Shown here in pieces: positions 28,243 through 44,593 of a stretch of 50,424 bases of DNA. Source of the DNA: a bacterium. Its GTDB lineage: Bacteria > Patescibacteriota > Saccharimonadia > Saccharimonadales > SZUA-47. The stretch is taken from the NCBI GenBank assembly GCA_030427365.1, contig JAUHWW010000004.1:1-50424 (forward strand), in the 5' to 3' direction. Below the pieces are notes generated by a model. That model ran no database searches and was not told where the DNA came from. It saw nothing but the letters and a program-made list of their open reading frames with translations. Within the stretch, counting starts at the first letter, position 1, and each line of letters begins with the position of its first letter. A program made the translations under genes and the position numbers.

Positions 28243-28244
28243 TT

Positions 28245-28664: not shown

Positions 28665-28716
28665 TTTTTTGCCTCAACAGAGGTAGAATTGCATTTACGT
28701 TTCGTAAAAACGAGGC

Positions 28717-28793
28717 GGGCCATTAGCTCAGCTGGTTAGAGCATCGGCCTCTTAAGCCGAGTGTCCTGGGTTCGAGTCCCAGATGGCCCTCCA
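28717..28793 (+). tRNA. tRNA-Lys(CTT)
   Basis: Anticodon arm TCGGC-CTCTTAA-GCCGA; GGTTCGAGTCC; encoded CCA. Confidence 0.97.
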
Positions 28794-28864
28794 ATCAAAT
28801 AAGCTCCCTCGTGGGGCTTTTCTGATTGGAACTATTAACTAGGCTTGAACCCAGGTGTCCTGGG

Positions 28865-28950
28865 TGAAAACTGCCAGTGGAAGTTTGCAAGGAAATCTTC
28901 ACCTGAAAGTTTGCTTTCATGGCAGAAGTTTCGGGGTCGCCAAAGGTGAC
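28865..28950 (+). repeat. Three-hairpin tRNA-associated element, Lys copy (86 nt)
   Basis: Flanked by GTGTCCTGGG (28855-28864) and CGAGTCCCAGACGGCCCT (28951-28968), i.e. a tRNA-Lys 3' duplicate with the T-loop TT replaced. Confidence 0.88.
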
Positions 28951-28973
28951 CGAGTCCCAGACGGCCCTTCTTG

Positions 28974-29006
28974 CAAAAAAGCTCCTTGGAGACAAGGAGC
29001 TTTTTG
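28974..29006. terminator. Bidirectional intrinsic terminator
   Basis: AAAAAGCTCCTTG-GAGA-CAAGGAGCTTTTT. Confidence 0.85.
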
Positions 29007-29021
29007 TAATTTGACGCGAAA

Positions 29022-29483
29022 CTATTTTTTGCTAGCGTCCATATTTTCTTTCAGGAGCCAGCCACTGCCAGCAGTCATAACTGCTGATCCAAGAAGGCTA
29101 AGCCAGTAGCCAATATCGATGCTAACGACACCAATGCCATCTGTATCAGGGTAATCGATAAGCACCATGAGAAAAGCCAGCGCACTCACGCCAACCGCAA
29201 GATACAGCATATTCTTCTTGTCTTGGTTGAACACATTCAGCCCTGCAATCACTGCAACTGCAAGCAAGATAACTGGGAATACACCATTGGCGTCAAATCC
29301 ATTCGCCGAGTAGTTCAGTGCGCTGCCAAATAGTCCTCCGCCGTCTCCTACATCAACTGATACCCATGGTAAAAACATACCGATGAGTAATGCAATCGCA
29401 CCACCAACAAGCAGCATTAGTTTTTTGTCTTTTTTTACATCTTCGAGCGCCTTTGCAGCGTCAAATCCTTGTTTCTTCGCCAT
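29022..29483 (-). CDS. Hypothetical 4-TM membrane protein
   Basis: FLPWVS...NGF...IGYWL pattern; GAGGAGG RBS before MAKKQ. Confidence 0.8.
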   Translation of the reverse strand: MAKKQGFDAAKALEDVKKDKKLMLLVGGAIALLIGMFLPWVSVDVGDGGGLFGSALNYSANGFDANGVFPVILLAVAVIAGLNVFNQDKKNMLYLAVGVSALAFLMVLIDYPDTDGIGVVSIDIGYWLSLLGSAVMTAGSGWLLKENMDASKK

Positions 29484-29543
29484 ACGTGTCCTCCTCAAGA
29501 CCTTATGGACTGATTGTACCCCGCTTTTTCACTTGAAAGCAAG

Positions 29544-30791
29544 CTAGTCTCTTACGAGCAGGCGCCGAAGGTTAGCAATGAGGTACAGTGAGCCAGTAAT
29601 CACTTTCACGCCTTCTTTACGCTGCAATGCCTTTAGGGCAGCGTTTTGGTCCTCAAAAATTTCTACATTACTTATGCCGTGCTTCTGTGCGCTCTTGGCG
29701 AGATCTCTGGGATCAGTTGCACTAAACGGGGCATCTTGCACGCCTTGAAAGCACGTGACAAGCAATGATGCGCACAGTGGCTGCAGCACCTCCATCACGC
29801 CATCCATATCTTTTCCTTGCTTCATAGCAATCAAAAAGTGAGCCTGTTTGCCTGGAAATTTTGCCTTAAAACTTTCCGCAAACACTTGCATCTTTTGCTG
29901 ATTATGCGCGCCGTCGAGGATGAGTGGCCCATTGTGAGTCTCGATTAGCTCCATTCGGCCGGGCACCTTTAGCTGCTTCGTGTCAAACAAAACGAGTTCA
30001 AACCCATCACGATCAGCTATGTGCTGACAAGCTGCTTTCGCGAGTGCGAGATTACGCTGCTGAAACAGTTCAACGTTAGCATTACCGTCGAGTTTTTGTG
30101 GCTCGATTACGTGCAGCGTTGCATCAACATTTTCCGCGCGTGACCAAAACACATCTAACACCTCTTCTGGCTGCTGATGAGTGAAGGCCACGTTGCCTGA
30201 GTGCATAATGCCGGCTTTCTGGCGTGCTATCTCCGGCAACGTTATACCAAGGATCTCTGTATGATCGAACCCAATATCAGTGAGCACACACACTTTGTCC
30301 GCTCTTGAAACGACATTGGTGCTATCAAGTTTGCCGCCCAGACCAGTTTCTAAAACCACATAATCAACAGCCTCATGCATGCTCACCCAAAGTACGAACA
30401 CAATAAACAACTCAAAATAGCTGGGTTTTTCTTTGTCGATATCAATGAGCCGCAAAAACTTGTTGAGATACTCGCAGAATAGGTCCTCATTGATCGGCTG
30501 CCCTTCGATTTGCAGACGCTCACGAACATCAGACAGGTGGGGTGATACGGTGAGCACCGTTTTCTTACCACTTGCTCGTAGAAATGCGTCAACATAATAC
30601 GCTGTCGATGTTTTACCAGATGTTCCCGCAATGTGCACCGCGCGCACCTTCTCGTGCGGATTACCGACGGCTTTTAGTAGCGGCCACATACGATCAAGCG
30701 TCAACCCATCGCTCATATAGAGTTTTGAATTCGGCAAAAGGCTTCGAAAAAATTCTTCCGCTTCGGCAACTGTGCTTATCGATGACGCCAT
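29544..30791 (-). CDS. folC: Folylpolyglutamate synthase/dihydrofolate synthase
   Basis: HIAGTSGKTST, SPHL, ETGLGGKLDSTNV, DHTEILG, LDGAHN and TGSLY motifs. Confidence 0.93.
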   Translation of the reverse strand: MASSISTVAEAEEFFRSLLPNSKLYMSDGLTLDRMWPLLKAVGNPHEKVRAVHIAGTSGKTSTAYYVDAFLRASGKKTVLTVSPHLSDVRERLQIEGQPINEDLFCEYLNKFLRLIDIDKEKPSYFELFIVFVLWVSMHEAVDYVVLETGLGGKLDSTNVVSRADKVCVLTDIGFDHTEILGITLPEIARQKAGIMHSGNVAFTHQQPEEVLDVFWSRAENVDATLHVIEPQKLDGNANVELFQQRNLALAKAACQHIADRDGFELVLFDTKQLKVPGRMELIETHNGPLILDGAHNQQKMQVFAESFKAKFPGKQAHFLIAMKQGKDMDGVMEVLQPLCASLLVTCFQGVQDAPFSATDPRDLAKSAQKHGISNVEIFEDQNAALKALQRKEGVKVITGSLYLIANLRRLLVRD

Positions 30792-30798
30792 GATGTTC

Positions 30799-32268
30799 CT
30801 ATAACAGGGGTGCTGTTATGCGGGCGATACTCTCAAGTAGTTTTTTTCGAAATGGACGCTCAGCCCAGATTTTTTCTGTAATGTGACGCGATTTCTTCAG
30901 ATATGCTTGTTCAATAGCTGCCAGTTCCTGTACTTCTTTGTGGCCATAGACGATGACGTTAAGCTCTAAATCAAGTGCAAACGAGCGAACATCAAGATTG
31001 CTCGAGCCGATAACGGCAATACTGTCATCAATAATCAACTGTTTGTTATGTAAAAAAGCTGGCTTTTTATAATGATAAATATGCACCCCTGCGCTGAGAA
31101 GCTCTTCATAAAAAGAGCGTTGAGCATAGCCAGCTAAGGTTTTGTCGATGATTTCTGAGTTAATTAATGTCACTTCAACACCTCGCTGAGCGGCAGTTGT
31201 TAGTGCGTCTAGAAACGCATCATCGGGGATAAAATACGGGACCACGATACCAATTCGCTCACGCGCTGCATAAATCATCGAGGTGTAGAAGCGCAGATTG
31301 TTTTCCTCAATGTGGCTCGGACCACTTGGCAAAACCTGCAATAGTGCATCACCCGCCTTATCCGGCAGATCATCGTCTTCAACTAATTCTAGGAGTGGAT
31401 CCTGTGTCTCCTGATACCAGTCTGCACGGAACACATTGTTGAGCTGCCATACTGCTGGTCCAGCAATCTGCGCTGTCAACTCTTCATATCGTAAATCATC
31501 ACCGCGATGATAACTATCGCGAATGATATTCTGCGATCCGGTAAAGGCAACCTCACCATCGATGACAATGATTTTCCTATGATTGCGCAGATCGGGACGT
31601 GTGAAGTCTTTCCCGGGCAGCAAAGACAGCGGAATCATATGTCGCACTTCGATATTGTTTCTACTAAAGAACGTGATCATGTCCTTATAACCTGGGTAAC
31701 GGCGACAGACGAGCTTATCGATGAGCACCCGCACTTTTACGCCACGCGCACTTGCATGCCCAAGCGCCTTGAATACTGGCTCGGTTGCCGTATCTTTCGT
31801 CATGATGAAATATTCGAGATGAATGTACTTCTGAGCTTTTCCGATTTCGTTAGCAATAGTCTCAAGACTTTGCTTGTAGCCGGTGACGAAAGTGATGTCA
31901 TTGCCGGCCATTGGCGGCAAACCGCCCAGCTGCGTCGCGAGATGGCTCAACGTCTTGGCACTATCACTATCGGGTTCAGCAATAACGCCCTTGCTACCAC
32001 GCAAATCGTCAAGTTCTTTACGCGTCAGTCGATCTGTTTCACGCTGACGGGCGCGGCGCACCTTCGGCAATTTTGGGTCGGCAAACATAAAAAACAGTAG
32101 GCTGCCAATACTCGGAAGTAGCATGACTAAAAGCAGCCACGCGTTCGCTGCCGCTAACGTCCGCCCGCGACGCGGCACAATATAGAGCATCACAAGGCGA
32201 ATCATCCATTCAAAACCAAACCAGAAATAAAGGGCAATTTGCCACGTATTCGATGCTGCTTCTTCCAC
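30799..32268 (-). CDS. cls: Cardiolipin synthase
   Basis: Two N-terminal TMs; two HKD motifs (NHRKIIVID, LHNKQLIID); GSSNLDVRS. Confidence 0.93.
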   Translation of the reverse strand: MEEAASNTWQIALYFWFGFEWMIRLVMLYIVPRRGRTLAAANAWLLLVMLLPSIGSLLFFMFADPKLPKVRRARQRETDRLTRKELDDLRGSKGVIAEPDSDSAKTLSHLATQLGGLPPMAGNDITFVTGYKQSLETIANEIGKAQKYIHLEYFIMTKDTATEPVFKALGHASARGVKVRVLIDKLVCRRYPGYKDMITFFSRNNIEVRHMIPLSLLPGKDFTRPDLRNHRKIIVIDGEVAFTGSQNIIRDSYHRGDDLRYEELTAQIAGPAVWQLNNVFRADWYQETQDPLLELVEDDDLPDKAGDALLQVLPSGPSHIEENNLRFYTSMIYAARERIGIVVPYFIPDDAFLDALTTAAQRGVEVTLINSEIIDKTLAGYAQRSFYEELLSAGVHIYHYKKPAFLHNKQLIIDDSIAVIGSSNLDVRSFALDLELNVIVYGHKEVQELAAIEQAYLKKSRHITEKIWAERPFRKKLLESIARITAPLL

Positions 32269-32329
32269 TTATGTACTCCCTTTAGGATGCAATCCCAAGC
32301 CTACCATGACTTCACCTGAAATAGCTACC

Positions 32330-32923
32330 TCAGGAATTCTTCTTGCGATGTTTCGACGTACCACTACCCAGCTGACGTGGCTGTTTGTTGGCTTGTGCGG
32401 TGCGGTGCTTCTCTGCCTCTTCGATTGTTCGTGACAGCACATCAACGACCGTTCGTGCATGCTCAATACTCATACCGACTCGAGCGGCGGCAACTGGCTG
32501 CCCATTTACGCCAGCTCCCTGCATGAAATTCATAATGACGCCGTAATTATTGACCATCACTTGCAGCAAATCCGTGTATACAACAGGTTGTGACGCCGCA
32601 TTCGCATGCTGAACACTGTCGATAATGACGTTGCCGATATCGTCACTAGAAAACACACTCTCCAGCGACTGCATGCCGTGATAGCCAGCGAGCTTCCAAA
32701 GTTTATCAGCCGTTTCATCGCTTACGTCAAAATGCTGGATGAGCAAGAATAAGATGTCCTCACTTGGTCGCTCGACACCATTTTCATAGGCTTTGAGCGT
32801 CGATTCTTGAATCTCAACCGCACCAGACACCTCAGCCGGCGTGCGCGACTGCTGGGCACGAAGTTGCTTCAGTGCTTGACCGAAGTCAGCATATGGCGTT
32901 TTATTACTTGAATTACTTCCCAT
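32330..32923 (-). CDS. XRE-type HTH protein with DUF3467-like C-terminal domain
   Basis: FGQALKQLR...YENGVERPS HTH; C-terminal PVVYTD...VIMNFMQ...ARVGMSIEHA. Confidence 0.75.
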   Translation of the reverse strand: MGSNSSNKTPYADFGQALKQLRAQQSRTPAEVSGAVEIQESTLKAYENGVERPSEDILFLLIQHFDVSDETADKLWKLAGYHGMQSLESVFSSDDIGNVIIDSVQHANAASQPVVYTDLLQVMVNNYGVIMNFMQGAGVNGQPVAAARVGMSIEHARTVVDVLSRTIEEAEKHRTAQANKQPRQLGSGTSKHRKKNS

Positions 32924-32991
32924 GTAGACTCCTATTTTACCGCAGCCATCCCTGTCATAACAAGCCAATTCACGCTATACTGCATGTTCAT

Positions 32992-34047
32992 ATGAGCACA
33001 CAGATCCAGACGAACGTTGCGCTAGCACCGTATACCAGTTTTGGCGTGGGCGGTAATGCAGAAAAGTTTGCCAATCCGCAATCCGCAGATGAACTCATCA
33101 CCCTGCTCAAAGAACACCGCAGCGAGCAGATTTCGCTACTTGGCTATGGTAGCAATGCGCTTATTTCTGATGAAGGGGTGCCCGGGTTAACGATATTGCT
33201 GCGAAGCTCACATATCGAAGTTAACGGCGATGAAATTATCGCAGATAGCGGCGTATGGTGGGATGACGTCGTAACGACAGCCATAAAGAATGACCTGTGG
33301 GGCATCGAGTTGCTTAGCAAAGTACCAGGTAGCCTCGGAGCCGCTTTGTATATCAACATTGCTGCGTACGGTCAAACAATCGGGCCTCGCGTCAAGTGGA
33401 TCGATGTGTGGGACAGTGACACGCATGAGGTCCGCAGACTTGAAGCAAGCGCACTGACATGGTCATACAAGCAGTCGGTATTCCAGCAACCAGAAATGAA
33501 AAAATTGCTTATCGTCCGAGCGTGCCTTCACCTGTCACGCCAAAAAACTGATGAACTAACGTATCAAAAAGCACTCGACATCGCCGAAGAAAAACACCTC
33601 AACCCAGATGATTTGGTAGAGCGACGCGACATTGTCATAGAAGCGCGCAGACGCGCAGGCTCGTTATGGCATCCAAGTGACACATCAGCGCGCACTGCAG
33701 GTTCGTTTTTCCGTAATCCGCTCGTTACTGCCGAGCAGGCGGATGCAATTATCGCTCACGACGAATCGGGACTTGCAGCCGACGTCATTCGCAAGATGAA
33801 CCAAGCGCATGGCGGTGATGCACTACGCGTATCGGCCGCTCACGTTATGCTTGCTGCCGGGTTTCAGCGCGGTCAAATACTACATGATCACGTTCGTCTG
33901 CATGAGAAAAACCTCCTGAAACTTGAGACATTGCCGGGCGCAAAAGCCAGAGAAGTATATGAAGCGATGCGGCACATCCAAAAACAGGTCAAGGATACCC
34001 TCGGTATCGACCTTGAGCCAGAAGTGAAGTTGCTTGGGAAGTTCTAG
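32992..34047 (+). CDS. murB: UDP-N-acetylenolpyruvoylglucosamine reductase
   Basis: LAPYTSFGVGG, LGYGSN, PGSLG, AGSFFRNP and LEPEV motifs; start at ATG 32992 after TATACT. Confidence 0.93.
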   Translation: MSTQIQTNVALAPYTSFGVGGNAEKFANPQSADELITLLKEHRSEQISLLGYGSNALISDEGVPGLTILLRSSHIEVNGDEIIADSGVWWDDVVTTAIKNDLWGIELLSKVPGSLGAALYINIAAYGQTIGPRVKWIDVWDSDTHEVRRLEASALTWSYKQSVFQQPEMKKLLIVRACLHLSRQKTDELTYQKALDIAEEKHLNPDDLVERRDIVIEARRRAGSLWHPSDTSARTAGSFFRNPLVTAEQADAIIAHDESGLAADVIRKMNQAHGGDALRVSAAHVMLAAGFQRGQILHDHVRLHEKNLLKLETLPGAKAREVYEAMRHIQKQVKDTLGIDLEPEVKLLGKF

Positions 34048-34048
34048 C

Positions 34049-34726
34049 ATGAGAAAAGTATGGGAACAGACGCTCTCTCATATTCGTCAGCACTACCAGG
34101 CGATTTTCGTGCTTATCATGGCGACGTTTTTCATTCTTCTCGCTGCAAATTTTGTCATTGTTGGCCGCGAAAACTCCCGTGTATTTAGTCTCTCTGAGAG
34201 TGACGGCATTGCTGCACTAGACGACATCCGCATCGGTATCGTATTCGGCGGCGGTGTGCACTATGGACAGCCATTGCCACTGCTGACAGACCGGCTCGAA
34301 ACAGCAAAGAAGCTGCTCGATAACGGAACGGTAGACAAGCTCTTACTCTCAGGTGATAACCGAGAGGTGAGCTACAATGAGCCGCTTGCGATGATGGATT
34401 ATCTCATTGATAGGTTGCAAGTTGACCCATCCAAGCTTCAACCGGATTTCGCCGGACGAAGCACCTATGAAACATGCGAACGCGCTAAAAAAGTATTTAG
34501 CATTGACCGCGCCATATTGATTACCGAGTCAACCCACCTCCCACGCGCCATTTATTTATGCCGCCACTTCGACATTAACGCGTTCGGCGTAAGTAGCGAT
34601 GGAGAATCATCGTCCGGACCAAAAGTCGGCCAGTGTTGGCGTGAAGTCTGGGCCCGCTCGAAAGCCATTTTCAACGCATACGTTATCGGCGAAGACACGG
34701 TTTTAGGCGAGCAGATTGAGCTTTAG
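34049..34726 (+). CDS. SanA/YdcF (DUF218) family protein
   Basis: LLSGDN, YNEP, DFAGRSTYETCERAK, HLPRA and RE motifs. Confidence 0.9.
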   Translation: MRKVWEQTLSHIRQHYQAIFVLIMATFFILLAANFVIVGRENSRVFSLSESDGIAALDDIRIGIVFGGGVHYGQPLPLLTDRLETAKKLLDNGTVDKLLLSGDNREVSYNEPLAMMDYLIDRLQVDPSKLQPDFAGRSTYETCERAKKVFSIDRAILITESTHLPRAIYLCRHFDINAFGVSSDGESSSGPKVGQCWREVWARSKAIFNAYVIGEDTVLGEQIEL

Positions 34727-35247
34727 ATAAGTACTTTGAAAACCGGCAGCGGTGGTCTAAAACGTAAATCAAGCTGGTCAGTATCCGTGTCTCTTATTGC
34801 GGAAAGTCCAAGATGCGAGAAGTCTTGCTCTGGGTTACCGACTGTATATTCTTGGCCACCTTCGCCTTCAACCAGGTCAAAATAAAAACTTCCGTCTAAA
34901 CCGCCTCTGCCGAACCCATCAATTTGCCCAGCTCGACAAAGAGTATTTACTAAATCCCGCTTAGACTGGTCTAACTCGCTCGCCTCAGGACGGATGCCAA
35001 CAGGTACGACACCGAATGAACACCCCGTTAGGGATATCGGAAATTGAATAGTATCCGCTATTTCTATCCTGGGCGATCCGGACGTGAAAAAATCTGCTCG
35101 AAGATAAAACCCATCATTCACCTCAATGTATAGAGGATAGTGGCGCAGGTATCTACTAAATCCTCCCATCGAAGAAGGTTTCCACATAAAATGCTTCGTC
35201 AGGGGTTCAAGCTCTACCTGAGCTATTTCTTCTGCTGGATTAGCCAT
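34723..35247 (-). CDS. Hypothetical protein
   Basis: 174 aa ORF with no recognisable motif. Confidence 0.6.
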   Translation of the reverse strand: MANPAEEIAQVELEPLTKHFMWKPSSMGGFSRYLRHYPLYIEVNDGFYLRADFFTSGSPRIEIADTIQFPISLTGCSFGVVPVGIRPEASELDQSKRDLVNTLCRAGQIDGFGRGGLDGSFYFDLVEGEGGQEYTVGNPEQDFSHLGLSAIRDTDTDQLDLRFRPPLPVFKVLI

Positions 35248-35312
35248 GCAAGAAGGATAGATCTAATTAATGACCGATGCAAGCGTGAGCAGAATCGCGC
35301 TAAAACAAGTAG

Positions 35313-36590: not shown

Positions 36591-36636
36591 AGTGTAACCC
36601 TCTCGTTTTCAGCATTAGTTCACTTCTACTTTGTAG

Positions 36637-36661
36637 CTAATTGCAAATTTCTTGCAATTAG
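36637..36661. promoter_or_regulatory. Perfect inverted repeat, candidate operator
   Basis: CTAATTGCAA-ATTTC-TTGCAATTAG between divergent glyA and HTH-murA. Confidence 0.4.
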
Positions 36662-36821
36662 AATTGTCTTGAAAGTATACGTGAAGCTAGATCATGGGGT
36701 TCAGTATACGCCAGCTGTTTCTATGCTCCTAGCGTAGAAAACACAATGAAACTTACAATATATGCATTTCGTGATATATTTTTGCATAATTATCGTTTAT
36801 TTAGTGCTATACTTGTTGCTT

Positions 36822-38357: not shown

Positions 38358-38923
38358 GCATCAGCTTGCAGGCGAGCAATAATTTCCTTGATCTGCGCTT
38401 CTATGTCTCCGGCGCCATCGACTTTGATAACGCTATATCCCTCGTTCTCAAAAGATACGTAGTCACGCGTAAATCTATCAAAGTGCTCTGACGGCACGTC
38501 GTGCCCTCCGCCCGCGGCGCGCTCTGCTACGCGCTGCTTTGCTAGTTCTGCGTCAATCTCCACCTCAACGACAAGAAGCGGCAGTGATTTACCGTGTTGC
38601 TTGGCATGATTGGTAAGATTACGAATCGTTTTCTGAAACCCATCAAGATTGGTAAACGCTTGATTCCAGATGATAATCTGATTATTTTCAATCCCCTCGT
38701 GAGCTTGCCGGCGCAAAAATCGGTATGGGTAGAATTTTTCATCAACCCCTTCAGAACGCAGCTCCTCGACCATCGTTTTGTACGACTGACTTTCATAATC
38801 AATCGCATCAGGGTCAAGGACAACGCAAGCAGCAATACCGAGTCGTTCAGCAAGAATCTCGGTAACATACGATTTGCCACTGCCTGGTATGCCGCGCACT
38901 AAAATAAGGTATGGTTTCGTCAT
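38354..38923 (-). CDS. P-loop NTPase/kinase (AAA_33 / zeta-toxin-like)
   Basis: RGIPGSGKS Walker A; RVAERAAGGGHDVP lid motif. Confidence 0.8.
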   Translation of the reverse strand: MTKPYLILVRGIPGSGKSYVTEILAERLGIAACVVLDPDAIDYESQSYKTMVEELRSEGVDEKFYPYRFLRRQAHEGIENNQIIIWNQAFTNLDGFQKTIRNLTNHAKQHGKSLPLLVVEVEIDAELAKQRVAERAAGGGHDVPSEHFDRFTRDYVSFENEGYSVIKVDGAGDIEAQIKEIIARLQADA

Positions 38924-38990
38924 AATTACCATTAAATAGTACCATTGCCTGTGCTAAAGTACCTGCTAGACTAACCAAAACGGAAGCATT

Positions 38991-40016
38991 ATGATTGAAG
39001 ACGCTTTTTTCACAGATCAAGTCGCTCGTTCTTTACTGCTCGGGATGCTCGGCTTTCTTTTAGCCATGACCCTGACGCCAATCTATACCTACTTCGCCTA
39101 CCGTTACGGATTCTGGAAGAAAAAGCGCACACATGACGCGCAAGGCAAAGAGCTAAAAGTCATGAAGAAGCTCAGCGTGCGCAAGCGGCGCGTCCCGACG
39201 ATGGCTGGCGTTATCATGCTCGTTTCTGCAGTATTTATTACGCTACTCTTCAACCTAAGTCGCGAGCAAACGTGGCTACCGCTTGCAGCACTTGTTGGCG
39301 GCGGAATAGTCGGCTTGCTTGATGACATCATCAACGTTCGCGGCGATGGCACGGGCGTGGCTGGACTGCGAGCGCCGATTAAATTCTTTATGATAACGGC
39401 CGTCGCCAGTGCAGCTGCGTGGTTTTTCTATTACAAACTTGGCTATACCACGGTTCACGTCGCATATCTCGGCGACGTGAGTTTAGGTGTGTTTATCATT
39501 CCACTCTTTATCCTTGCCGTTGTTAGTACTGGTAATGCGGTGAATATCAGTGATGGACTCGACGGGCTGGCGGGTGGTCTACTACTGACAGCATATGGCG
39601 CTTTTGGGCTCATTGCACTGCTGCAAGGTAACTACGGTATCGCTGGCTTTTGCTTCACTGTTTGCGGCACCTTGCTTAGCTACATGTGGTTCAACATCCC
39701 CCCTGCTCGCTTTTTCATGGGCGACGTTGGATCGTTTTCGCTCGGCACGGCTCTCGGCGTCGTGGCAATGCTAACGGATACGCTCGTGTTGCTGCCGATC
39801 ATCGGCTTCGTGTTCGTCGTTGAAGCCGGCTCTTCAATGTTGCAATTGCTGTCGAAGAAGTACCGAGATGGGAAAAAGATTTTCCGCGTTGCGCCTATTC
39901 ATTATCACTTTGAAGCAGGCGGCTGGCCTCGCACAAAGGTGACCATGCGTTTTTGGCTGATTGGCCTTTGCTTTGCCGTTATTGGCGTTACTGTCGCCCT
40001 CACCGGCGGCTATTGA
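38991..40016 (+). CDS. mraY: Phospho-N-acetylmuramoyl-pentapeptide transferase
   Basis: VPTMAG, GLLDD, NAVNISDGLDGL, FMGDVGS and APIHYHFE motifs. Confidence 0.96.
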   Translation: MIEDAFFTDQVARSLLLGMLGFLLAMTLTPIYTYFAYRYGFWKKKRTHDAQGKELKVMKKLSVRKRRVPTMAGVIMLVSAVFITLLFNLSREQTWLPLAALVGGGIVGLLDDIINVRGDGTGVAGLRAPIKFFMITAVASAAAWFFYYKLGYTTVHVAYLGDVSLGVFIIPLFILAVVSTGNAVNISDGLDGLAGGLLLTAYGAFGLIALLQGNYGIAGFCFTVCGTLLSYMWFNIPPARFFMGDVGSFSLGTALGVVAMLTDTLVLLPIIGFVFVVEAGSSMLQLLSKKYRDGKKIFRVAPIHYHFEAGGWPRTKVTMRFWLIGLCFAVIGVTVALTGGY

Positions 40017-41305
40017 GCAGCGATCGCTTTCTTAACCTCAGCGATTTCATCCCAAGGCTTATCACCGCCCACGCGCGGGATAGTTGTCTCATGACCTTTG
40101 CCTAGCAAGGCAACCACATCACCTTTTTTTGCAATTGATACCGCTCTCGTAATTGCTGCTTCGCGGGCTTCGATTTCTTCAACTTCCCCGCCAAAACTGG
40201 CAACTTCAGCGATACCTTTTTTGATGTCTTGATTAATATCGCTCACCTTTTCGTCATACACCGTATCTTCAGTCAGAATAATGTGATCAGCGAAAGTAGC
40301 TGCTATGCGTCCAAACGGCGCTCTAATGCTATGATCACGATTCCCGTAGCCGCCAAACACAGCGATTACCTTTCCGTCTGTATGTTTCCGTAAGTCAGAC
40401 AAAACAAGTTCAAACGCGTCTGGTGTGTGGGCAAAATCAACCAATACATGCGCGCCATTTTTGGTCTCGAAACGCTCCATCCGGCCTTTCACTCCCTCGA
40501 AAGAATCAAGTGCCTTCGTCGCCTCAGCTAACCCGATACCTTCTTGCAACGCGCAGCCTATTGCTGCCAGTGCATTCTCCACGTTGAACGTGCCTGTTAG
40601 ACGTAGTTTTGCAGGTGCAGCTTCGCCCTGATAGTGAACATTGAACGACGTGACGCCATTTTTTTCAATGATGTTCTCACCCCATACGTCTCCTGAATTG
40701 ATGCCGTAGGTCAGTCGCTGCTGCTCATCAATTGGTGCTTGCATCATCTTGCTGTGCTCGTCGCTTTCGACAAACACGCCCCAGCCACCGCGCTTGCCGA
40801 TCATTTCAAACAACCCACGTTTTGCTGCAGCGTACCGATCCATTGTCCCAAAATAATCTAAATGATCATGACTTAGGTTGGTAAAAACGCCTCCGATATA
40901 GCGAATAAAAGCCAAACGATGCTGGACGACGGCGTGCGCACTTGACTCAACTACGAGGTATTCGTCTGCAGACCTTTCGACTTCTTTTATGCGCCGGTAC
41001 AGGTTCATCGGCGTTTCGGTTGTAAGCGTTGACGTGTTGGCGTGCACTCTTCCTCCCCAAAATGCATTCGTCGTACTAAAGTAAGCTGTTTTTCTGCCGA
41101 CCTTATTGAAAATATGCCCAACCATCGCAGTAACCGTCGACTTGCCGGAAGTGCCTGTGACACCGATGATCTTCAATGTTCTTCCTGGAAAACCCAAGAC
41201 GACGTTCGCCGTCAGCGTTTCAAGGTAGTGGTACGCGTTCGCGATGCTGCGACGGGTAGACTTTGGTAGTAGCATTTTTAAAGCTTTTTTAAACTTTTTA
41301 TACAT
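40010..41305 (-). CDS. murE: UDP-MurNAc-tripeptide synthetase
   Basis: GVTGTSGKST, TTE, ESSAH, TNLSHDHLDY, VDFAHTPD and GKGHE motifs; start after TATAAT. Confidence 0.92.
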   Translation of the reverse strand: MYKKFKKALKMLLPKSTRRSIANAYHYLETLTANVVLGFPGRTLKIIGVTGTSGKSTVTAMVGHIFNKVGRKTAYFSTTNAFWGGRVHANTSTLTTETPMNLYRRIKEVERSADEYLVVESSAHAVVQHRLAFIRYIGGVFTNLSHDHLDYFGTMDRYAAAKRGLFEMIGKRGGWGVFVESDEHSKMMQAPIDEQQRLTYGINSGDVWGENIIEKNGVTSFNVHYQGEAAPAKLRLTGTFNVENALAAIGCALQEGIGLAEATKALDSFEGVKGRMERFETKNGAHVLVDFAHTPDAFELVLSDLRKHTDGKVIAVFGGYGNRDHSIRAPFGRIAATFADHIILTEDTVYDEKVSDINQDIKKGIAEVASFGGEVEEIEAREAAITRAVSIAKKGDVVALLGKGHETTIPRVGGDKPWDEIAEVKKAIAAQ

Positions 41306-41426
41306 GCCTGCCATTATACCGGTTTGTGCATTTCCGGAAACCGCAATATCTGGTATAATCAACCCCTGTTACTATCACTGTAGCTCCCCGATAAAAGAGA
41401 GCATACTTTTTTTCGGAACGAGCGAG

Positions 41427-41494
41427 AAATTTTGTTTGAGGCAAATGCCAGGCAAAAAGTATCGTCTTTGCCTGGCCTAGCACAAACAAAATTT
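41427..41494. other. Long inverted repeat upstream of tRNA-Gly
   Basis: AAATTTTGTTTG...GCCAGGCAAA / TTTGCCTGGC...CAAACAAAATTT. Confidence 0.7.
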
Positions 41495-41497
41495 TGA

Positions 41498-41572
41498 GCG
41501 GGTGTGGTATAACGTTTATTATTCCTGCCTTCCAAGCAGGCGACGCGGGTTAGACTCCCGCCACCCGCACCA
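41498..41572 (+). tRNA. tRNA-Gly(TCC) with non-canonical D/T loops
   Basis: Anticodon arm CCTGC-CTTCCAA-GCAGG; acceptor GCGGGTG/CACCCGC; CCA; T-loop TTAGACT. Confidence 0.9.
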
Positions 41573-41601
41573 CATGTTACTTGCAGTACCTTAGCTAGCA
41601 C

Positions 41602-41626
41602 GCCCTGGTAGCTCAGCGGATTAGAG
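41602..41626 (+). repeat. Exact duplicate of tRNA-Arg(TCT) nt 1-25
   Basis: GCCCTGGTAGCTCAGCGGATTAGAG is identical to 41783-41807. Confidence 0.95.
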
Positions 41627-41713
41627 TGAGGGATGCCTATGGCATGCCGCAAGGAGACTTTCCTCATCAATCTATGATTGATTGAGCGAAATCTCGGGGT
41701 CGCGGAACGTGGC
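41627..41713 (+). repeat. Three-hairpin tRNA-associated element, Arg copy (87 nt)
   Basis: TGA-GGGATGCC/GGCATGCC-GCAAG-GAGACTTTC...GAAATCTC-GGGGTCGC-GGAAC-GTGGC; tRNA sequence GCGGG resumes after it. Confidence 0.85.
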
Positions 41714-41782
41714 GCGGGTTTCCCGCTGCTCGGACCAAACCCATTCACACAATTTAACAACAAATGGTTCCTTAATTGATAC

Positions 41783-41859
41783 GCCCTGGTAGCTCAGCGG
41801 ATTAGAGCAGCGGGCTTCTATCCCGCGTGTCGGGGGTTCGACTCCCTCCCAGGGTACCA
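41783..41859 (+). tRNA. tRNA-Arg(TCT)
   Basis: Anticodon arm GCGGG-CTTCTAT-CCCGC; GGTTCGACTCC; CCA. Confidence 0.96.
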
Positions 41860-41867
41860 ATTTAGAT

Positions 41868-41943
41868 GGCGGGTGTAGTTCAACGGTTAGAACGTCGGGT
41901 TGTGGTTCCGAAGACGGGAGTTCGATTCTCCTCACTCGCCCCA
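41868..41943 (+). tRNA. tRNA-His(GTG)
   Basis: Anticodon arm TCGGG-TTGTGGT-TCCGA; encoded G-1 and C73; CCA. Confidence 0.96.
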
Positions 41944-41946
41944 AAT

Positions 41947-41977
41947 AAAATCAGCTGCAAGGCTGATTTTAATTTTT
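41947..41977 (+). terminator. Terminator after the Gly-Arg-His tRNA cluster
   Basis: AAAATCAGCT-GCA-AGGCTGATTTT-type hairpin followed by T-rich sequence. Confidence 0.7.
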
Positions 41978-42033
41978 CAATGGTTATCCACTTGTTTTCA
42001 CAGAGCTGCTTTGCGATACTAAGCACAAGAATT

Positions 42034-42519
42034 ATGAGTCAAGAAGAAATTGATATTTTCCTACAAGTCGTTGTTGCCGTCTGTATGGGTGGAATCATCG
42101 GCATCGAGCGTGAGTTGTCTAAAAAACCAGCTGGCATTCGGACGCACATGTTTGTCGCAGGAGCAGCAGCACTCGTCATGGGTATCAGCACGCTGCTTAT
42201 CCACGACTTTGCCAATGATTTTGGCTCAGTGCAGTCTGACCCTGTGCGTGTTATAGAGGCGGTTATCGTTGGCATCAGCTTTATCGGCGCAGGCACTGTA
42301 TTAAAGAGCGAGAAGTCCCATAATGTTTACTACCTCACAACGGCGGCGTCTATCCTATTTGCAGCCGCAATCGGCATCACTGTTGGCCTAGAACGCTACT
42401 GGCTTGCACTGTGTCTTACAGGGCTCGTCGTGCTCACAAACTTAGCTGTTGGAAACCTCGAGCTAAAATATCTCGGGAAAAAAGAACACCATACCGATGA
42501 TGTTCACCCGCAGAACTAG
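42034..42519 (+). CDS. MgtC/SapB family protein
   Basis: GIERE, AGIRTH, GISFIGAG and LTTAAS motifs; start at ATG 42034. Confidence 0.93.
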   Translation: MSQEEIDIFLQVVVAVCMGGIIGIERELSKKPAGIRTHMFVAGAAALVMGISTLLIHDFANDFGSVQSDPVRVIEAVIVGISFIGAGTVLKSEKSHNVYYLTTAASILFAAAIGITVGLERYWLALCLTGLVVLTNLAVGNLELKYLGKKEHHTDDVHPQN

Positions 42520-42526
42520 ATAATGC

Positions 42527-43057
42527 TTAGGTGATTATTCTTTCGAGCACAGTTCCGAGTGTGTAGGCAATAAGCGCTGCTGCAACACCGAGTCCAAGAG
42601 TTTCAAGCACAGACTTTGCCTTATCAACTCCTGTTACGACAGCTCTCAAATAGCCGATACCTGCGAATGCCGCGAGCGTTAAGAATATCGAGTATATGAG
42701 TGCATTATCGCCGAGCTGTAATTCAAACATATAATCGGCAATGTAGATGACTAGTGGGACAAACCCAATGACAACAAAGGAAATAAACGTTGCAATTGAA
42801 GCCCCGAGTGGCGACTCTTGTTCTGCGGTATCCTTACTTTTTTTTGCTTCGAGCTGCTGATCGGCTTTTTCGCTAAGATACGCGCCAACCGCCATCGAGA
42901 ACCCGTCAGCGAAAACATTTGCTAACCCCAAAATCAGTATCACTTGACTGCTAAAGTTAGCCCCGGCAGCGCCAGTCACGATCGCGAAGGTCGTCACCGC
43001 ACCATCCATGCCGCCATAAACGAACTCACGCAGGTTGCTCTCAATTCTCCCAGTCAT
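42527..43057 (-). CDS. VIT1/CCC1 family Fe/Mn transporter
   Basis: VYGGMDGAVTTF and GLANVFADGFSMAVGAYLS motifs. Confidence 0.93.
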   Translation of the reverse strand: MTGRIESNLREFVYGGMDGAVTTFAIVTGAAGANFSSQVILILGLANVFADGFSMAVGAYLSEKADQQLEAKKSKDTAEQESPLGASIATFISFVVIGFVPLVIYIADYMFELQLGDNALIYSIFLTLAAFAGIGYLRAVVTGVDKAKSVLETLGLGVAAALIAYTLGTVLERIIT

Positions 43058-43086
43058 ACCTTTTAGTATCGCAGACGATAGACGGC

Positions 43087-43740
43087 TCAGGCAAGTGAGT
43101 TTATGAATATGACGGTAAAGAGTGGCGTAAATAGGTTGTCAGACCCGTATGGTGAGCTGTTCTCAAGGACAGTCGCAACTGCTGGCAACAACACCAGCAT
43201 CGCAAGCATGTTATTTTCAATTGTTTCTTGTCCGCCGATACCCCAGGCAATAGCGATTGATACGTACACTAGAGCAATATAGGCGACAGTGCCTGCGATA
43301 CTTTTTCGGAGGTTTTTCTTGCCAAAAACGTAATAGCTGTTGCTGCCGCCCCAGAACCGTCCTACAACCGCGGCGCCGCCATCAGCAAGCGCCATTAGTA
43401 AGATAGCCAGGGTGAACACCCAGGGCTCACGCGTAAGCAACGCGCAAAAAGCCATAGAAAGGGCAAAGAACAACTCGCCGTAAGTTCGCCGCTTTACCGC
43501 GTAAATCGCGTGAATGAGGCCAGTTGTACGCGAATAAATGAGCACGTTAAATCCGACCAAACTAAGCAGGAATATCACCTCAAGCGGGATGTAGTGCGGC
43601 CAAAATGCCATCCACATGCCCGCCAAAATATGTATAAATTTGCGTGCACGCTCGCCTTTCACAACACCTTTACGCCATAGTGCTTCTGAAATTAGCAAGA
43701 CGAGGCCAACCGGCAACAAGGCAATGAGAAGTTTTAACAC
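43087..43740 (-). CDS. Polyprenol/phytol kinase-like membrane protein (CTP-dependent family)
   Basis: RKFIHI, ADGGAAVVGR, KSIAG and GSDNL motifs. Confidence 0.85.
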   Translation of the reverse strand: MLKLLIALLPVGLVLLISEALWRKGVVKGERARKFIHILAGMWMAFWPHYIPLEVIFLLSLVGFNVLIYSRTTGLIHAIYAVKRRTYGELFFALSMAFCALLTREPWVFTLAILLMALADGGAAVVGRFWGGSNSYYVFGKKNLRKSIAGTVAYIALVYVSIAIAWGIGGQETIENNMLAMLVLLPAVATVLENSSPYGSDNLFTPLFTVIFINSLA

Positions 43741-43802
43741 AATGCATCGATTATAACACTGGTAACACCAGCAGATCTGCGGTATAATCGTCTGAGTAAT
43801 TT

Positions 43803-43827
43803 CGGGGTGTAGCTCAGTTGGCTAGAG
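43803..43827 (+). repeat. Exact duplicate of tRNA-Pro nt 1-25
   Basis: CGGGGTGTAGCTCAGTTGGCTAGAG is identical to 43972-43996; both are preceded by ATTT; TATAAT at 43783. Confidence 0.95.
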
Positions 43828-43914
43828 TGAGAGCCGTCGGTGACGGGTCGCAAGGGAACCCACTCTTGAAAACTTGTTTTTCAAAGATGTGGTGACGGGG
43901 TCGCCGGAGGTGAC
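43828..43914 (+). repeat. Three-hairpin tRNA-associated element, Pro 5' copy (87 nt)
   Basis: TGA-GAGCCGTC/GACGGGTC-GCAAG-...TGAAAA-CTTG-TTTTTCA...-GGGGTCGC-CGGAG-GTGAC; tRNA sequence CGCGGTTTGG resumes at 43915. Confidence 0.88.
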
Positions 43915-43971
43915 CGCGGTTTGGCCCAAACCTGACCGAAATGTCACTAAACTAATTTACAATTTATATTT

Positions 43972-44048
43972 CGGGGTGTAGCTCAGTTGGCTAGAGTGCG
44001 CGGTTTGGGACCGTGAGGTCGGAGGTTCAAGTCCTCTCACCCCGACCA
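43972..44048 (+). tRNA. tRNA-Pro(TGG)
   Basis: Anticodon arm CGCGG-TTTGGGA-CCGTG; GGTTCAAGTCC; CCA. Confidence 0.97.
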
Positions 44049-44119
44049 AATAAAGATCCGTCCGTTTGGACGGTTTTTTATTTGGTTTCTGAGGGATGAG
44101 ATGGGCTTGAACCGTTAGG

Positions 44120-44209
44120 TGAGAAGTGCCATAAGCGCACTTCGCAAGAGAATCTTTCAGCTATGAAACTTGTTTCATGCTTGAAAGTTCTGGGCCCGCA
44201 GAATGTGGG
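44120..44209 (+). repeat. Three-hairpin element, Pro 3' copy a (90 nt)
   Basis: TGA-GAAGTGC/GCACTTC-GCAAG-AGAATCTTTCAG...TTGAAAGTTCT-GGGCCCGC-AGAAT-GTGGG; followed by an exact 21-nt tRNA-Pro 3' end (44210-44230). Confidence 0.88.
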
Positions 44210-44315
44210 CAAGTCCTCTCACCCCGACCAAAGAAAAGAGTCGTCCAAATGGACGGCTTTTTTCTTTGATTAGAGGTAGGATTTGTAGCTCAAACCTCAC
44301 GGAGTGAGTCGGAGG

Positions 44316-44413
44316 TGAGGAGTGCTGCGTCTAGCACTCCGGAAACCCGGAAGCAGATTTTGAACTTGCTTCAAAGTCTTTTGAGGGCGGGGCGGGACTC
44401 GGCTGAATCCGCC
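44316..44413 (+). repeat. Three-hairpin element, Pro 3' copy b (divergent)
   Basis: Preceded by tRNA-like GTGAGTCGGAGG; TGA-GGAGTGCT/AGCACTCC-GGAAA-...TTTGAA-CTTGC-TTCAAA...-GGGGCGGG/TCCGCC. Confidence 0.6.
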
Positions 44414-44435
44414 AGCTGGCAGATCACCGAGATCG

Positions 44436-44521
44436 TGACAAAGTCCGGTGGCATTCTGCAAGGCAATCTTCTTCATCAAACTTACTGGATTGAACGAAGT
44501 TGCGGGGTCGCTGAAAGTGAC
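44436..44521 (+). repeat. Three-hairpin element, Pro 3' copy c (86 nt)
   Basis: TGA...GCAAG-GCAATCTTC...GAAGTTGC-GGGGTCGC-TGAAA-GTGAC, followed by degenerate tRNA-Pro end CAAGTCC...CCCCGACCA (44522-44543). Confidence 0.85.
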
Positions 44522-44545
44522 CAAGTCCAGTATGCCCCGACCAAT

Positions 44546-44575
44546 AAAAAATGACCGTACCCATGGTCATTTTTT
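44546..44575. terminator. Bidirectional terminator
   Basis: AAAAAATGACCGT-ACCC-ATGGTCATTTTTT. Confidence 0.8.
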
Positions 44576-44593
44576 AGTATCGCTATGTGCTAC

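Follow-up and report, generated by a model that had tools for sequence, protein, structure and literature searches.

The locus analyzed here raises the question of what resides in the broken tRNA copies that accompany several of its intact tRNA genes. An earlier note on the window (the whole 50,424-nt stretch of contig JAUHWW010000004.1, from a 0.94-Mb genome termed G000) had described a family of three-hairpin sequences inserted into partial tRNA duplicates and had proposed either a structured RNA, perhaps a ribozyme, or a non-autonomous mobile element. In this report, we found that the observation is real and that its interpretation is partly supported.

Results

Element copies and their tRNA-derived surroundings

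A covariance model built from 15 copies (R1) places five clear copies of the element where they had been reported, all on the + strand, with scores of 72.8-92.6 bits (E = 7e-14 to 2e-18). The element is ~87 nt long and folds, on the tRNA sense strand, into three hairpins (P1-P3) with conserved linkers between them; the layout TGA-P1-GCAAG-P2-GGG-P3 and the stem variants quoted earlier are legible directly in the sequence. The GCAAG linker, claimed to be nearly invariant, occurs in only 11 of the 15 aligned copies, the others having GGAAAC (2), GTAAG (1) and TCAAG (1). Further, the looser sixth copy at 44316-44413 is not a degenerate one and has no R1 score at E<=1. It is instead a longer sister element, E2 (~124 nt, about 44316..44439, +), which shares 74-76% identity with two other copies in the same genome (C5:20893 and C8:1998) and 62% with one copy in a relative.

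Copy 1 (28865..28951, +; 92.6 bits) is located in the T-loop of a tRNA-Lys 3' fragment. It is preceded by the intact tRNA-Lys(ctt) (28717..28793, +; ARAGORN; Rfam tRNA, 70.7 bits), the terminator-like hairpin of that gene (28801..28819, +), a stretch read as a decayed antisense copy of the tRNA's 3' third (tgattgg...ggcttgaacccag; 28823..28854, +; 13/15 when aligned locally with the reverse-complemented 3' end of tRNA-Lys), and a sense stub made up of the variable region and the 5' strand of the T-stem (28855..28864, +; 11/11, including the T of TGA). A copy of the tRNA-Lys 3' tail (28952..28969, +; 17/18 to tRNA positions 57-74) and, after it, a second terminator-like hairpin complete the arrangement.

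Two other copies occupy 5' fragments. Copy 2 (41627..41714, +; 83.8 bits) follows the D-stem in a duplicate of positions 1-25 of tRNA-Arg(tct) (41602..41626, +; 25/25). By reading, an anticodon-stem stub, a 3-nt closing loop and antisense remains of the 5' end of tRNA-Arg come next (41714..41742, +), ahead of the intact gene (41783..41859, +; ARAGORN). Copy 3 (43828..43915, +; 87.3 bits) likewise follows the D-stem in a duplicate of positions 1-27 of tRNA-Pro(tgg) (43803..43829, +; 27/27), which is preceded by four leader bases. Here, a stub hairpin (ggtttgg/ccaaacc) and the antisense remnant ccgaaat (43916..43942, +; by reading) are succeeded by a promoter-like site (43941-43970) and the intact tRNA-Pro(tgg) (43972..44048, +; ARAGORN).

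Behind the terminator-like hairpin of tRNA-Pro (44058..44073, +) are two stacked units. The first consists of a decayed antisense duplicate of the 3' end of tRNA-Pro with a short sense stub (44081..44119, +; by reading, antisense match 13/15), copy 4 at the T-loop position (44120..44210, +; 72.8 bits), and a tRNA-Pro 3' tail (44210..44230, +; 21/21) with a homologous terminator. The stretch at 44081..44119 forms a long inverted repeat with the tRNA-Pro end, and this repeat surfaces as a chance row in Rfam. The second unit holds another antisense piece and sense stub (44263..44315, +; by reading), E2, copy 5 (44436..44522, +; 80.2 bits), the start of which overlaps the final four bases of E2, and a tail followed by a terminator-like hairpin (44523..44544, +; by reading). 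The assertion that every copy lies in a duplicate of the adjacent tRNA thus stands for the Lys, Arg and two Pro fragments; copy 5 has a tail that resembles tRNA-Pro but is not identical to the resident tRNA-Pro(tgg).

Residence beside intact tRNAs extends beyond the window. Among 61 copies, 41 have a tRNA within 300 nt on the same strand, one has a tRNA on the opposite strand, and for the other 19 the retrieved sequence contains no tRNA; the intact, co-oriented tRNA is 40-90 nt from the copy. In local alignments, the 5' arms match their cognate tRNAs at 172 of 175 positions over 11 units and the 3' tails at 426 of 442 over 23 units, one of the latter having been paired with the wrong tRNA. The points at which the element interrupts these partial copies are the T-loop, the D-loop and the position following the D-stem; in tRNA-Phe fragments, it follows the D-stem in G000 and is found in the D-loop in a relative (G010). 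The order within a unit is sense tRNA arm, element, short stub, tight turn and antisense tRNA piece. This larger unit with its antisense piece had gone unnoticed in the earlier note. The units depend on the element family, because an element-free genome (G038) has a pseudo-3' unit at only 1-2 of 20 tRNA loci.

Fold and covariation

Compensatory changes occur at 25 of 31 predicted pairs among the 15 copies from the window's genome. In an alignment of 61 copies (60 distinct rows) from six genomes, which was fitted to the model and is therefore biased towards structure, 94.1% of cells pair, versus 66.6% in 500 shuffles and 32-53% in slid controls; 28 of the 31 pairs change on both sides. Mutual information retrieves these helices only. 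Pairing is strongly supported and far above chance, and the surmise that the fold, along with its conserved linkers, is under selection is supported. The suggestion of a ribozyme found no pointer: no ribozyme family was matched, and the element family has no conserved junction core.

Could the hairpins work as single-stranded DNA, e.g. as a recombination or priming site, and not as RNA? The three-hairpin layout is strand-specific, 3' units are located behind terminators, and G.U pairs are rare (about 1.7% of cells) apart from one conserved position in P3 (44 of the 57 distinct rows having letters at both positions). However, the third hairpin of orthologous copies drifts via G.T-type pairs, and three or four of these would make a 6-bp stem less stable in DNA; HUH or integron-type enzymes were not found; and no rationale at the level of DNA is known for the placement with respect to tRNAs. 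We consider a DNA signal highly improbable.

Distribution

The R1 search yielded 16 strong copies (E<=1e-8) in G000 and found copies in 46 of 61 related genomes, at 2-22 per genome; in the other 15, including both genomes of one same-family genus, no element was found. A phylum-wide sample of 150 other genomes comprised six from this order and 144 from elsewhere in the phylum. The only match was in one of the six; none of the 144 gave one. A gathering-threshold Rfam scan of the whole window returned seven tRNAs and nothing else, and a permissive scan of 43750-44600 gave only tRNA and chance-level rows, in agreement with the earlier failure to recognize a named family. A pattern search of IMG/VR and blastn searches of phage and plasmid collections gave no match. 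The element is previously uncatalogued, has no Rfam match and, in the genomes sampled, is restricted to one order of tiny-genome bacteria.

Turnover and constraint

The proposed mobility is borne out by nested copies, by filled and empty sites between congeners, and by near-identical copies at different tRNAs. Five nested copies were found, two being duplicates of each other; all follow the CGGG of another copy's P3, the remainder of which comes after the insert, so that the third hairpin of the outer copy is disrupted. The window's whole Arg 5' unit is missing in two relatives (G001 and G002), where tRNA-Gly and tRNA-Arg are 9 nt apart, and a Ser 5' unit of G003 is missing in G029, where the orthologous promoter region directly precedes the tRNA. 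The Arg/Ser pair is arranged differently in all four species examined from a genus of five. Copies at different tRNAs in the same genome can be 97.8% and 100% identical. Most copies are old, their mean pairwise identity being 60%. The window's units are unchanged in related strains from two other studies, so nothing indicates that the element is active at this locus today.

Resident copies are also constrained. Between G003 and G006, orthologous copies share 88.5% and 89.8% identity beside a terminator spacer so scrambled that about half of its columns match by eye, which demonstrates constraint on their sequence. One stem carries a triple compensatory swap, and another has only wobble-compatible changes. 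These observations also speak for a rival reading, in which the element belongs to tRNA transcription units as a non-coding RNA module that the host retains and that duplication has spread incidentally. Such a module would be made in the tRNA leaders of 5' units, from the tRNA promoter, or in the read-through trailers of 3' units. It would influence processing or stability in cis, or bind a protein in trans. Its strict co-orientation with tRNAs, the original tRNA promoter upstream of 5' units, the stability of units across related strains, the conserved loops and linkers (including the A..CUUG..U apical loop of P2), and the 85-90% identity reached by copies at different tRNAs in different genera are all compatible with such a role. 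Nevertheless, 15 relatives lack a detectable element, only a subset of tRNAs carries it, and the choice differs among species of one genus. Moreover, nesting breaks the outer copy's third hairpin, unrelated inserts fill the equivalent place at other tRNAs, no promoter-like site was called in 3' units, and wobble pairs outside the conserved G.U are no more frequent than A.C mismatches (29 each). We rate a host module as rather unlikely.

Searches for a mobilizing enzyme

G000, at 99.35% completeness, yielded no mobilizing enzyme. Searches for a reverse transcriptase (RVT_1), a splicing endonuclease (tRNA_int_endo), RtcB and rve gave no match, and neither a DDE transposase nor a dedicated integrase was found; one Xer-like tyrosine recombinase is present. 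The sole Y1_Tnp match (13 bits) was rejected as a sugar nucleotidyltransferase. The HUH/Y1 transposase or reverse transcriptase envisaged as a partner is accordingly not in evidence in this genome. Among the 61 relatives, reverse transcriptases (11 genomes) and large serine recombinases (44) are not distributed in step with the element.

Another possibility is that small integrative elements or gene cassettes recombined with tRNA genes and left their ends behind as the units, the identical tRNA arm being the att core and the element the adjoining arm region. Direct repeats of tRNA ends flank the units. Tandem stacks of units follow tRNA-Pro, Leu and Glu, and one precedes tRNA-Trp in G003. One or two accessory genes can lie between the tRNA and the distal element-bearing tail (e.g. 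C6, C5 and C17; one such gene is patchy, in 5 of 61 genomes), and many copies are 100-300 nt from contig ends. As in integrative elements, 3' units bring their own terminator and 5' units a -10-like box. Against this, most genomes have a single Xer-like recombinase only, and the phage, plasmid and IMG/VR searches were negative. A single integrase was seen near a copy, in G039; its tRNA fragment is of the ordinary attR type, free of insert or antisense piece, with the element unit placed beyond it. The 11.6 kb between two copies in G010 hold housekeeping genes; and the supposed core, the T-loop, is interrupted by the element, not flanked by it. This origin strikes us as quite improbable.

More doubtful still is an RNA-level, intron-like or ribozyme element that would gain access to exposed tRNA loops, at the D-loop/T-loop elbow and at position 26, by reverse splicing or ligation, and would return to DNA via cDNA. 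Its insertion sites are indeed solvent-exposed loops of folded tRNA, nested copies resemble twintrons, and the sense-strand fold is conserved. Yet a reverse transcriptase, a splicing endonuclease and RtcB were not found in G000, and no ribozyme family matched in Rfam. The pseudo-copies contain promoter and terminator DNA foreign to mature tRNA, and no full-length interrupted tRNA gene was seen; a candidate in G003 turned out to be stacked 5' units.

Discussion

The evidence establishes that the family exists, how it folds, which sites it occupies, that it turns over and that the sequence of its resident copies is constrained. We propose, with about an even chance of being right, that it is a new, lineage-restricted, structure-dependent and non-autonomous tRNA-loop insertion element with a ~87-nt form and a ~124-nt sister form. 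The element would enter loop or hinge sites of tRNA-gene sequence (T-loop 54/56, D-loop, position 25/26) or the look-alike CGGG^TCGCC in its own third hairpin, and would persist only where the same event leaves an intact tRNA alongside. That event, probably a single step, would yield a unit of gene-identical long tRNA arm, element, short stub, tight turn and antisense piece. The likeliest routes are a template switch during replication and recombination via the identical tRNA arm. Either would draw on functions of the host or on a trans-acting factor that has escaped notice; a dedicated enzyme was found neither in the element nor among the resident genes. The fold would be required in RNA or in single-stranded DNA, where it would serve propagation or else a role of the transcribed tRNA leader or trailer; conservation of the resident copies fits a host function and a selfish one equally well.

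Several facts weigh against this proposal: the failure to find an enzyme in G000, the failure of reverse transcriptases and serine recombinases to track the element, the age of most copies and the absence of any sign of current activity here. Further, an antisense piece and a 100% identical tRNA tail beside diverged terminators have no demonstrated mechanism. The "targeting" claimed at the outset covers only part of the picture: simple insertion does not explain the larger unit with its antisense piece and its terminator or promoter-like box.

Known systems share parts of this picture. REP/REPIN sequences, which come with a RAYT transposase, are short, multi-copy, intergenic hairpin elements, non-autonomous and long-kept, often near terminators behind genes. 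The present element is like them in being short, multi-copy, hairpin-forming, intergenic, long-kept and non-autonomous; unlike them, it has no RAYT/Y1 gene that we could find, comprises three hairpins with conserved linkers and not a palindrome doublet, and is bound to tRNA sequence and partial tRNA duplication. BOX, RUP, Correia and ERIC are structured bacterial MITE-like repeats, similar in size class, copy number, non-coding nature and folding potential in transcripts. Our element differs in having neither terminal inverted repeats nor short target duplications, in helices that diverge strongly yet still pair, and in its tRNA-loop specificity.

In Thermoproteales archaea, non-canonical tRNA introns have been proposed to transpose between tRNA positions; they interrupt functional genes and are excised by the splicing endonuclease at a bulge-helix-bulge motif. 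They too are short inserts at the D-arm, T-arm and other non-anticodon positions with kin at different tRNAs, whereas the present host is bacterial, its endonuclease and RtcB were not found, and only fragments are interrupted.

Integrative elements that target tRNA genes use Williams-type sublocations in the T-loop or anticodon loop. Tandem stacking, intervening accessory genes, tRNA-end direct repeats and a restored intact tRNA are common to our units and to such elements with their att remnants (cf. PMC1762012). In contrast, our units have no integrase nearby and carry their insert inside the T-loop of the displaced fragment. They also include a piece of antisense tRNA, and their fold covaries in the manner of RNA; the ordinary attR of G039 looks different.

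Finally, inverted triplications that arise through replication template switching (ODIRA; PMC11790251) offer a parallel. ODIRA in general and our units have in common the sense-antisense-sense order of the duplicated segment and the turnarounds at hairpins. In our units, however, the second turnaround is not at a pre-existing inverted repeat, and the events are on a scale of tens of bases, recur at many tRNAs and always carry the same foreign 87-nt insert.

Copies and Fold of the Element

The window contains seven tRNA genes and, on the + strand, all five of the clear copies claimed in the earlier note for an element of about 87 nt (28865-28951, 41627-41714, 43828-43915, 44120-44210 and 44436-44522); each can be aligned over its entire length. 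A nhmmer profile made from these five matched the genome of the window, G000 (935,495 bases in 40 contigs, 99.35% complete), at 17 places with E<0.01. With an alignment of 15 full copies, RNAalifold predicted three hairpins (P1, P2 and P3) with compensatory changes in 25 of 31 pairs, and U1-A and G2-C pairs lengthen the first hairpin up to its linker. The covariance model based on this same alignment, R1, returned 19 matches in G000 at E<=1, of which 16 stood at E<=1e-8. In a larger alignment of 61 copies from six genomes, which is biased towards structure because it was fitted to the model, 94.1% of cells were paired, as against 66.6% on shuffling and 32-53% when the partners were slid, and 28 of the 31 pairs changed on both sides. 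The independent RNAalifold result and a mutual-information ranking agree with this pairing, and the three lines together support the earlier claim of covariation with conserved linkers. No tertiary pairs or pseudoknot were seen by mutual information. One G.U pair in P3 is retained in 44 of the 57 distinct rows that have letters at both positions, and the conserved bases are scattered across the linkers and the apical loop of P2. The element begins with TGA and ends with GTGRYC, with no inverted ends.

The looser sixth copy proposed earlier is indeed a related structured element, but it belongs to a separate, longer sister family (E2; about 44316-44439) with at least two further members in G000 and one in a relative. 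E2 has in common with the element the TGA start, the first hairpin, a GNRA-like linker, a CUUG-capped second hairpin and a CGTGAC end; it differs in an additional helix in its third domain.

Association with tRNA Genes

Every interrupted tRNA copy is a fragment beside an intact gene, as the earlier note had it. A same-strand tRNA lies within 300 nt of 41 of the 61 copies, mostly at 41-93 nt; one copy has an opposite-strand tRNA, and the stretch examined holds no tRNA for 19, some of these at contig ends. The units come in two mirror-image kinds. In the 3' kind, the intact tRNA and its terminator are followed by the tRNA's 3' third in a decayed antisense copy, then by a tight turn of 2-4 nt and a sense stub made of the variable region and the 5' strand of the T-stem; the element then replaces T-loop position 55, and the tail from C56 to CCA leads to a second, homologous terminator. 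In the 5' kind, the original promoter region comes first, then an arm with tRNA positions 1 to about 25 (1-18 or 1-53 in some), after which stands the element. A short sense stub and a tight turn lead from there to an antisense remnant, and a spacer that ends in a -10-like box separates this remnant from the intact tRNA.

The long tRNA arm beside the element hardly differs from the gene. In local alignments, which flatter identity, the 3' tails match the cognate tRNA at 426 of 442 positions (23 units, one of them assigned to the wrong tRNA) and the 5' arms at 172 of 175 (11 units); the antisense pieces match at just 371 of 454, and the duplicated terminators have diverged. A terminator scan backs the terminators after tRNAs. 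A promoter scan called a promoter-like site inside a 5' unit, before the real tRNA-Pro, and none in the 3' units.

Tandem units stand behind tRNA-Pro, tRNA-Leu(taa) and tRNA-Glu(ctc) of G000, and ahead of tRNA-Trp in the related genome G003. The latter locus had been a candidate for an interrupted functional gene and was rejected, as it consists of stacked 5' units. Some units enclose one or two accessory genes. Between two units of G000, a 216-aa protein with no Pfam match is encoded (contig C6:21524-22171; 360-1010 of stretch L004); its gene, which was found in only five of 61 relatives, one of them from another family at 65% identity, has the look of an accessory one. Directly upstream of tRNA-Lys(ctt) (window 27826-28664), two small DUF4234 proteins are encoded side by side. 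The tail behind the fifth copy (window 44523-44544) resembles a tRNA-Pro 3' end that differs from the resident tRNA-Pro(tgg), and may derive from a Pro isoacceptor since lost; the tRNA-Pro(ggg) of the relative G006 carries an element copy.

The same unit type occurs in G000 with unrelated hairpin inserts in the pseudo-T-loop, at tRNA-Glu(ttc), Ser(gct), Thr(tgt), Gln(ttg) and Phe. Behind tRNA-Glu(ttc), a unit at window 5336-5520 has the terminator, antisense piece and sense stub, then an insert unlike the element, some 100 nt long and with several hairpins, in the pseudo-T-loop, and then a copy of the tRNA tail matching at 19 of 20 nt (95%). The downstream pseudo-3' copies of the other four (C10:105000-105210, C2:3385-3510, C8:2246-2400 and C5:12644-12800, respectively) carry a short, unrelated hairpin of 20-50 nt as their T-loop insert. 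In G038, a genome free of the element, any pseudo-3' unit was found at only 1-2 of the 20 tRNA loci examined; what the units accompany is therefore the element families, not tRNA genes in general. No tRNA-Asn turned up in G000 with either ARAGORN (41 genes) or the Rfam tRNA model (40 matches), for all the genome's 99.35% completeness, and its tRNA-Leu(tag) appears on two contigs, C20 and C21. The units may break assemblies at tRNAs, and the element probably accounts for many of the contig breaks found at tRNAs in this order.

Mobility and Turnover

At five loci in two genomes (two of the loci being mutual duplicates), a complete copy is nested inside another copy, always behind the CGGG that precedes the outer third hairpin, with the remainder of that hairpin after it. 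The nesting site, CGGGGTCGCC, is similar to the T-arm site, GGGGTTCG. Insert position within fragments of one tRNA type varies between genomes; in tRNA-Phe fragments, for example, the insert follows the D-stem in G000 and lies in the D-loop in the relative G010. Where the window has a 210-nt unit between tRNA-Gly and tRNA-Arg(tct), two relatives (G001 and G002) have 9 nt. Likewise, at tRNA-Ser(cga), the orthologous promoter region abuts the gene in G029, an empty site, and G003 has pseudo-arm, element, stub hairpin and spacer, a filled one. At the Arg(gcg)/Ser(cga) pair, the arrangement differs in each of the four species compared, out of five in that genus.

Copies at different tRNAs within one genome reach 97.8% (G003) and 100% (G010) identity, against a mean of 60% over all copy pairs. 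In a tree of 56 copies, which are too short for a decisive tree, genomes and tRNA types are intermixed. Contigs from four DNA runs of two other studies, in which rare variants are invisible, showed no unit-sized gain or loss over 28300-45300, and the window's units are without length change in the related strains of those studies. Two near-identical double copies in G010 had suggested an island between them; this was rejected because the intervening 11.6 kb holds housekeeping-type genes (murA, glyA and murB). Beside a murA-like gene of G010 there lies an intergenic, perfect tandem repeat of the 7-nt unit TTAGTAG, about 100 nt long (4345-4470 of stretch L028).

Constraint on Resident Copies

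For two units, the orthologs in G003 and G006, genomes of different genera, were set side by side. Their elements are 88.5% and 89.8% identical, and the stub and turn preceding them show few differences or none; the terminator that separates the unit from the tRNA, itself identical, is scrambled, and changes in the terminator stem compensate each other. One pair has three fully compensated pair differences in the first hairpin. In the other, all differences in the third hairpin retain G-C, G.U or U.G on the + strand, which argues for pairing as RNA, or at least in the sense strand. A reading of the element as a DNA signal fails at least one of the features tested. Copies at non-homologous sites in different genera are still up to 85-90% identical, and therefore the sequence itself is held, not the fold alone.

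The main rival to a mobile element, and a plausible one, is that the leader or trailer RNA would serve the host; the conservation of resident copies fits either reading. Against strong selection on every copy counts the finding that wobble pairs, the conserved G.U excluded, are no commoner than A.C mismatches (29 of each), which points to plain decay in many copies. Mobility and a host function may go together, for instance if a mobile element is tolerated or domesticated in place.

Distribution and Candidate Enzymes

R1 has matches in 46 of 61 related genomes, at 2-22 per genome (44 of 59 without the unpublished G009 and G021). These include 28 of 30 same-family genomes, G000 excluded, and many other families of the order; at E<=0.001 the 61 genomes gave 441 matches. 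The nearest clusters of related proteins tentatively suggest Candidatus Saccharimonadota as the lineage, and a search for related loci with the window's Mur ligase had a distant Caldisericum record as its sole result. A phylum-wide sample of 150 other genomes, 6 of the same order and 144 of other orders, gave a match in one, from the same order, and in none of the 144. A search of IMG/VR with one degenerate pattern that fits only 12 of the 61 known copies and a blastn search of phage and plasmid collections with one copy gave no match; both are weak searches for so short and divergent an element.

Of the co-occurring enzyme genes that the earlier note listed for checking, HUH/Y1 transposase and reverse transcriptase did not turn up in G000, where neither RVT_1, rve nor a credible Y1 transposase was found; the sole PF01797 match (13 bits) is an NTP_transferase protein. 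The tRNA splicing endonuclease (PF01974) and RtcB (PF01139) were not found there either. Reverse transcriptases (11 of 61 genomes), serine recombinases (Resolvase; 44 of 61) and extra integrases (Phage_integrase counts in the 61 genomes) do not track with the element; for example, the element matches number 18 in G003 and 15 in G006 (E<=0.01), two genomes without a serine recombinase. Most of the 61 genomes have a single Xer-like recombinase; that of G000, a tyrosine recombinase, is far from every copy. The one large serine recombinase of G000 is beside tRNA-Gln(ctg). Its gene converges on this tRNA and abuts the 3' end, both in G000 (C38:600-2260) and in G010 (C1:780360-781980); in these two genera it probably marks an integrated element at that tRNA.

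The units resemble att remnants of a tRNA-integrating element in that a direct repeat of the tRNA end flanks inserted DNA, but they differ in having no integrase at the unit end. The integrative-element reading fails at least one tested feature. The sole integrase close to a copy (0.3 kb, in G039) belongs to a prophage-like insertion. As attR this insertion has a tRNA fragment of the ordinary, uninterrupted sort; the element unit is situated beyond attR, and the integration is a separate one. This region (L049, G039 C2:97000-110000) encodes a tyrosine integrase, an Mrr-type nuclease and a C1q-domain protein, has weak capsid-related matches, and is integrated beside a tRNA-Gln-like 3' fragment.

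Interpretation

The reading that best fits the data is a small, non-autonomous element, with selection acting on its sense-strand fold. Thus, of the options offered in the earlier note, a structured noncoding RNA or ribozyme and a non-autonomous mobile element, the selected fold stands and the mobile element fits best; no ribozyme family was matched. We envisage that the element would enter loop or hinge positions of tRNA-gene sequence, and that every event would duplicate the adjoining tRNA arm and restore a functional gene equipped with its own signals. Replication that switches template or primes from a fold-back would be expected to leave the sense-antisense-sense order and tight turns as its signature; recombination through the arm would fit the perfect arm repeats equally well. 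Neither route explains the constant carriage of the same 87 nt.

A bolder proposal is a new class of mobile element without a protein of its own, in which the RNA or single-stranded DNA fold would direct copy-insertion into the D-loop/T-loop elbow and hinge of tRNA-gene sequence, the same event rebuilding an intact, promoter- or terminator-equipped tRNA alongside. We regard this as improbable. If true, the target would never be lost, since the tRNA is rebuilt in the same event, and the element would therefore be tolerated, even kept, in genomes of less than 1 Mb.

Little repetitive or mobile DNA would be expected in such ultra-small episymbiotic bacteria. With 16 copies per 0.94 Mb, the element and its tRNA-derived units are among the commonest non-coding features of G000. 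Within a genus the element shows turnover, yet where retained it is conserved, and a large share of tRNA genes have had their leaders and trailers reshaped by it. The element presents a compact, covariation-rich RNA fold to which no function is assigned, and possibly a new means by which tRNA genes can be exploited yet left intact. Annotation of these genomes would gain from a covariance model for the element, which would also flag pseudo-tRNA fragments.

Comparison with Known Families

Rfam 15 has no match to the element: the whole window at the gathering threshold gave only the seven tRNAs, and 43750-44600 at E<=10 gave, besides the tRNA, rows at chance level that do not fit the element. Hammerhead, hairpin, twister, twister-sister, hatchet and pistol ribozymes had no match in either scan. 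Nor was a description of the element found by full-text searches of the literature outside subscription journals and supplements.

An intron-or-ribozyme reading fails at least one tested feature. Archaeal-type, protein-spliced tRNA introns interrupt functional tRNA genes and are accompanied by a splicing endonuclease and ligase, whereas the element interrupts fragments only, in a genome without PF01974 and PF01139 matches. Group I and II introns have a catalytic core of at least 200 nt, group II with a domain V and usually a reverse transcriptase; the element differs in its 87 nt, the lack of an Rfam intron match and the lack of RVT_1 in G000.

Among mobile families, REPs and REPINs have a cognate RAYT (Y1 HUH) gene in the genome, unlike the element, given what the lone PF01797 match proved to be. 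MITEs have terminal inverted repeats and a short target-site duplication, but the element has no inverted ends and its flanking tRNA repeats measure 20-52 nt, on one side only. Integron attC sites and gene cassettes come with an IntI integrase and an attC fold with R''/R' core sites. PATEs and omega-RNA scaffolds derived from IS200/IS605 have TnpA (Y1) or TnpB in the genome, and Y1 was not found in G000. We can place in no known family an element that combines specificity for tRNA loops with an RNA-type covarying fold and with a partial tRNA duplication that is obligatory and includes an antisense piece. In kind, the element belongs with the small structured bacterial repeats and with tRNA-associated mobile DNA.
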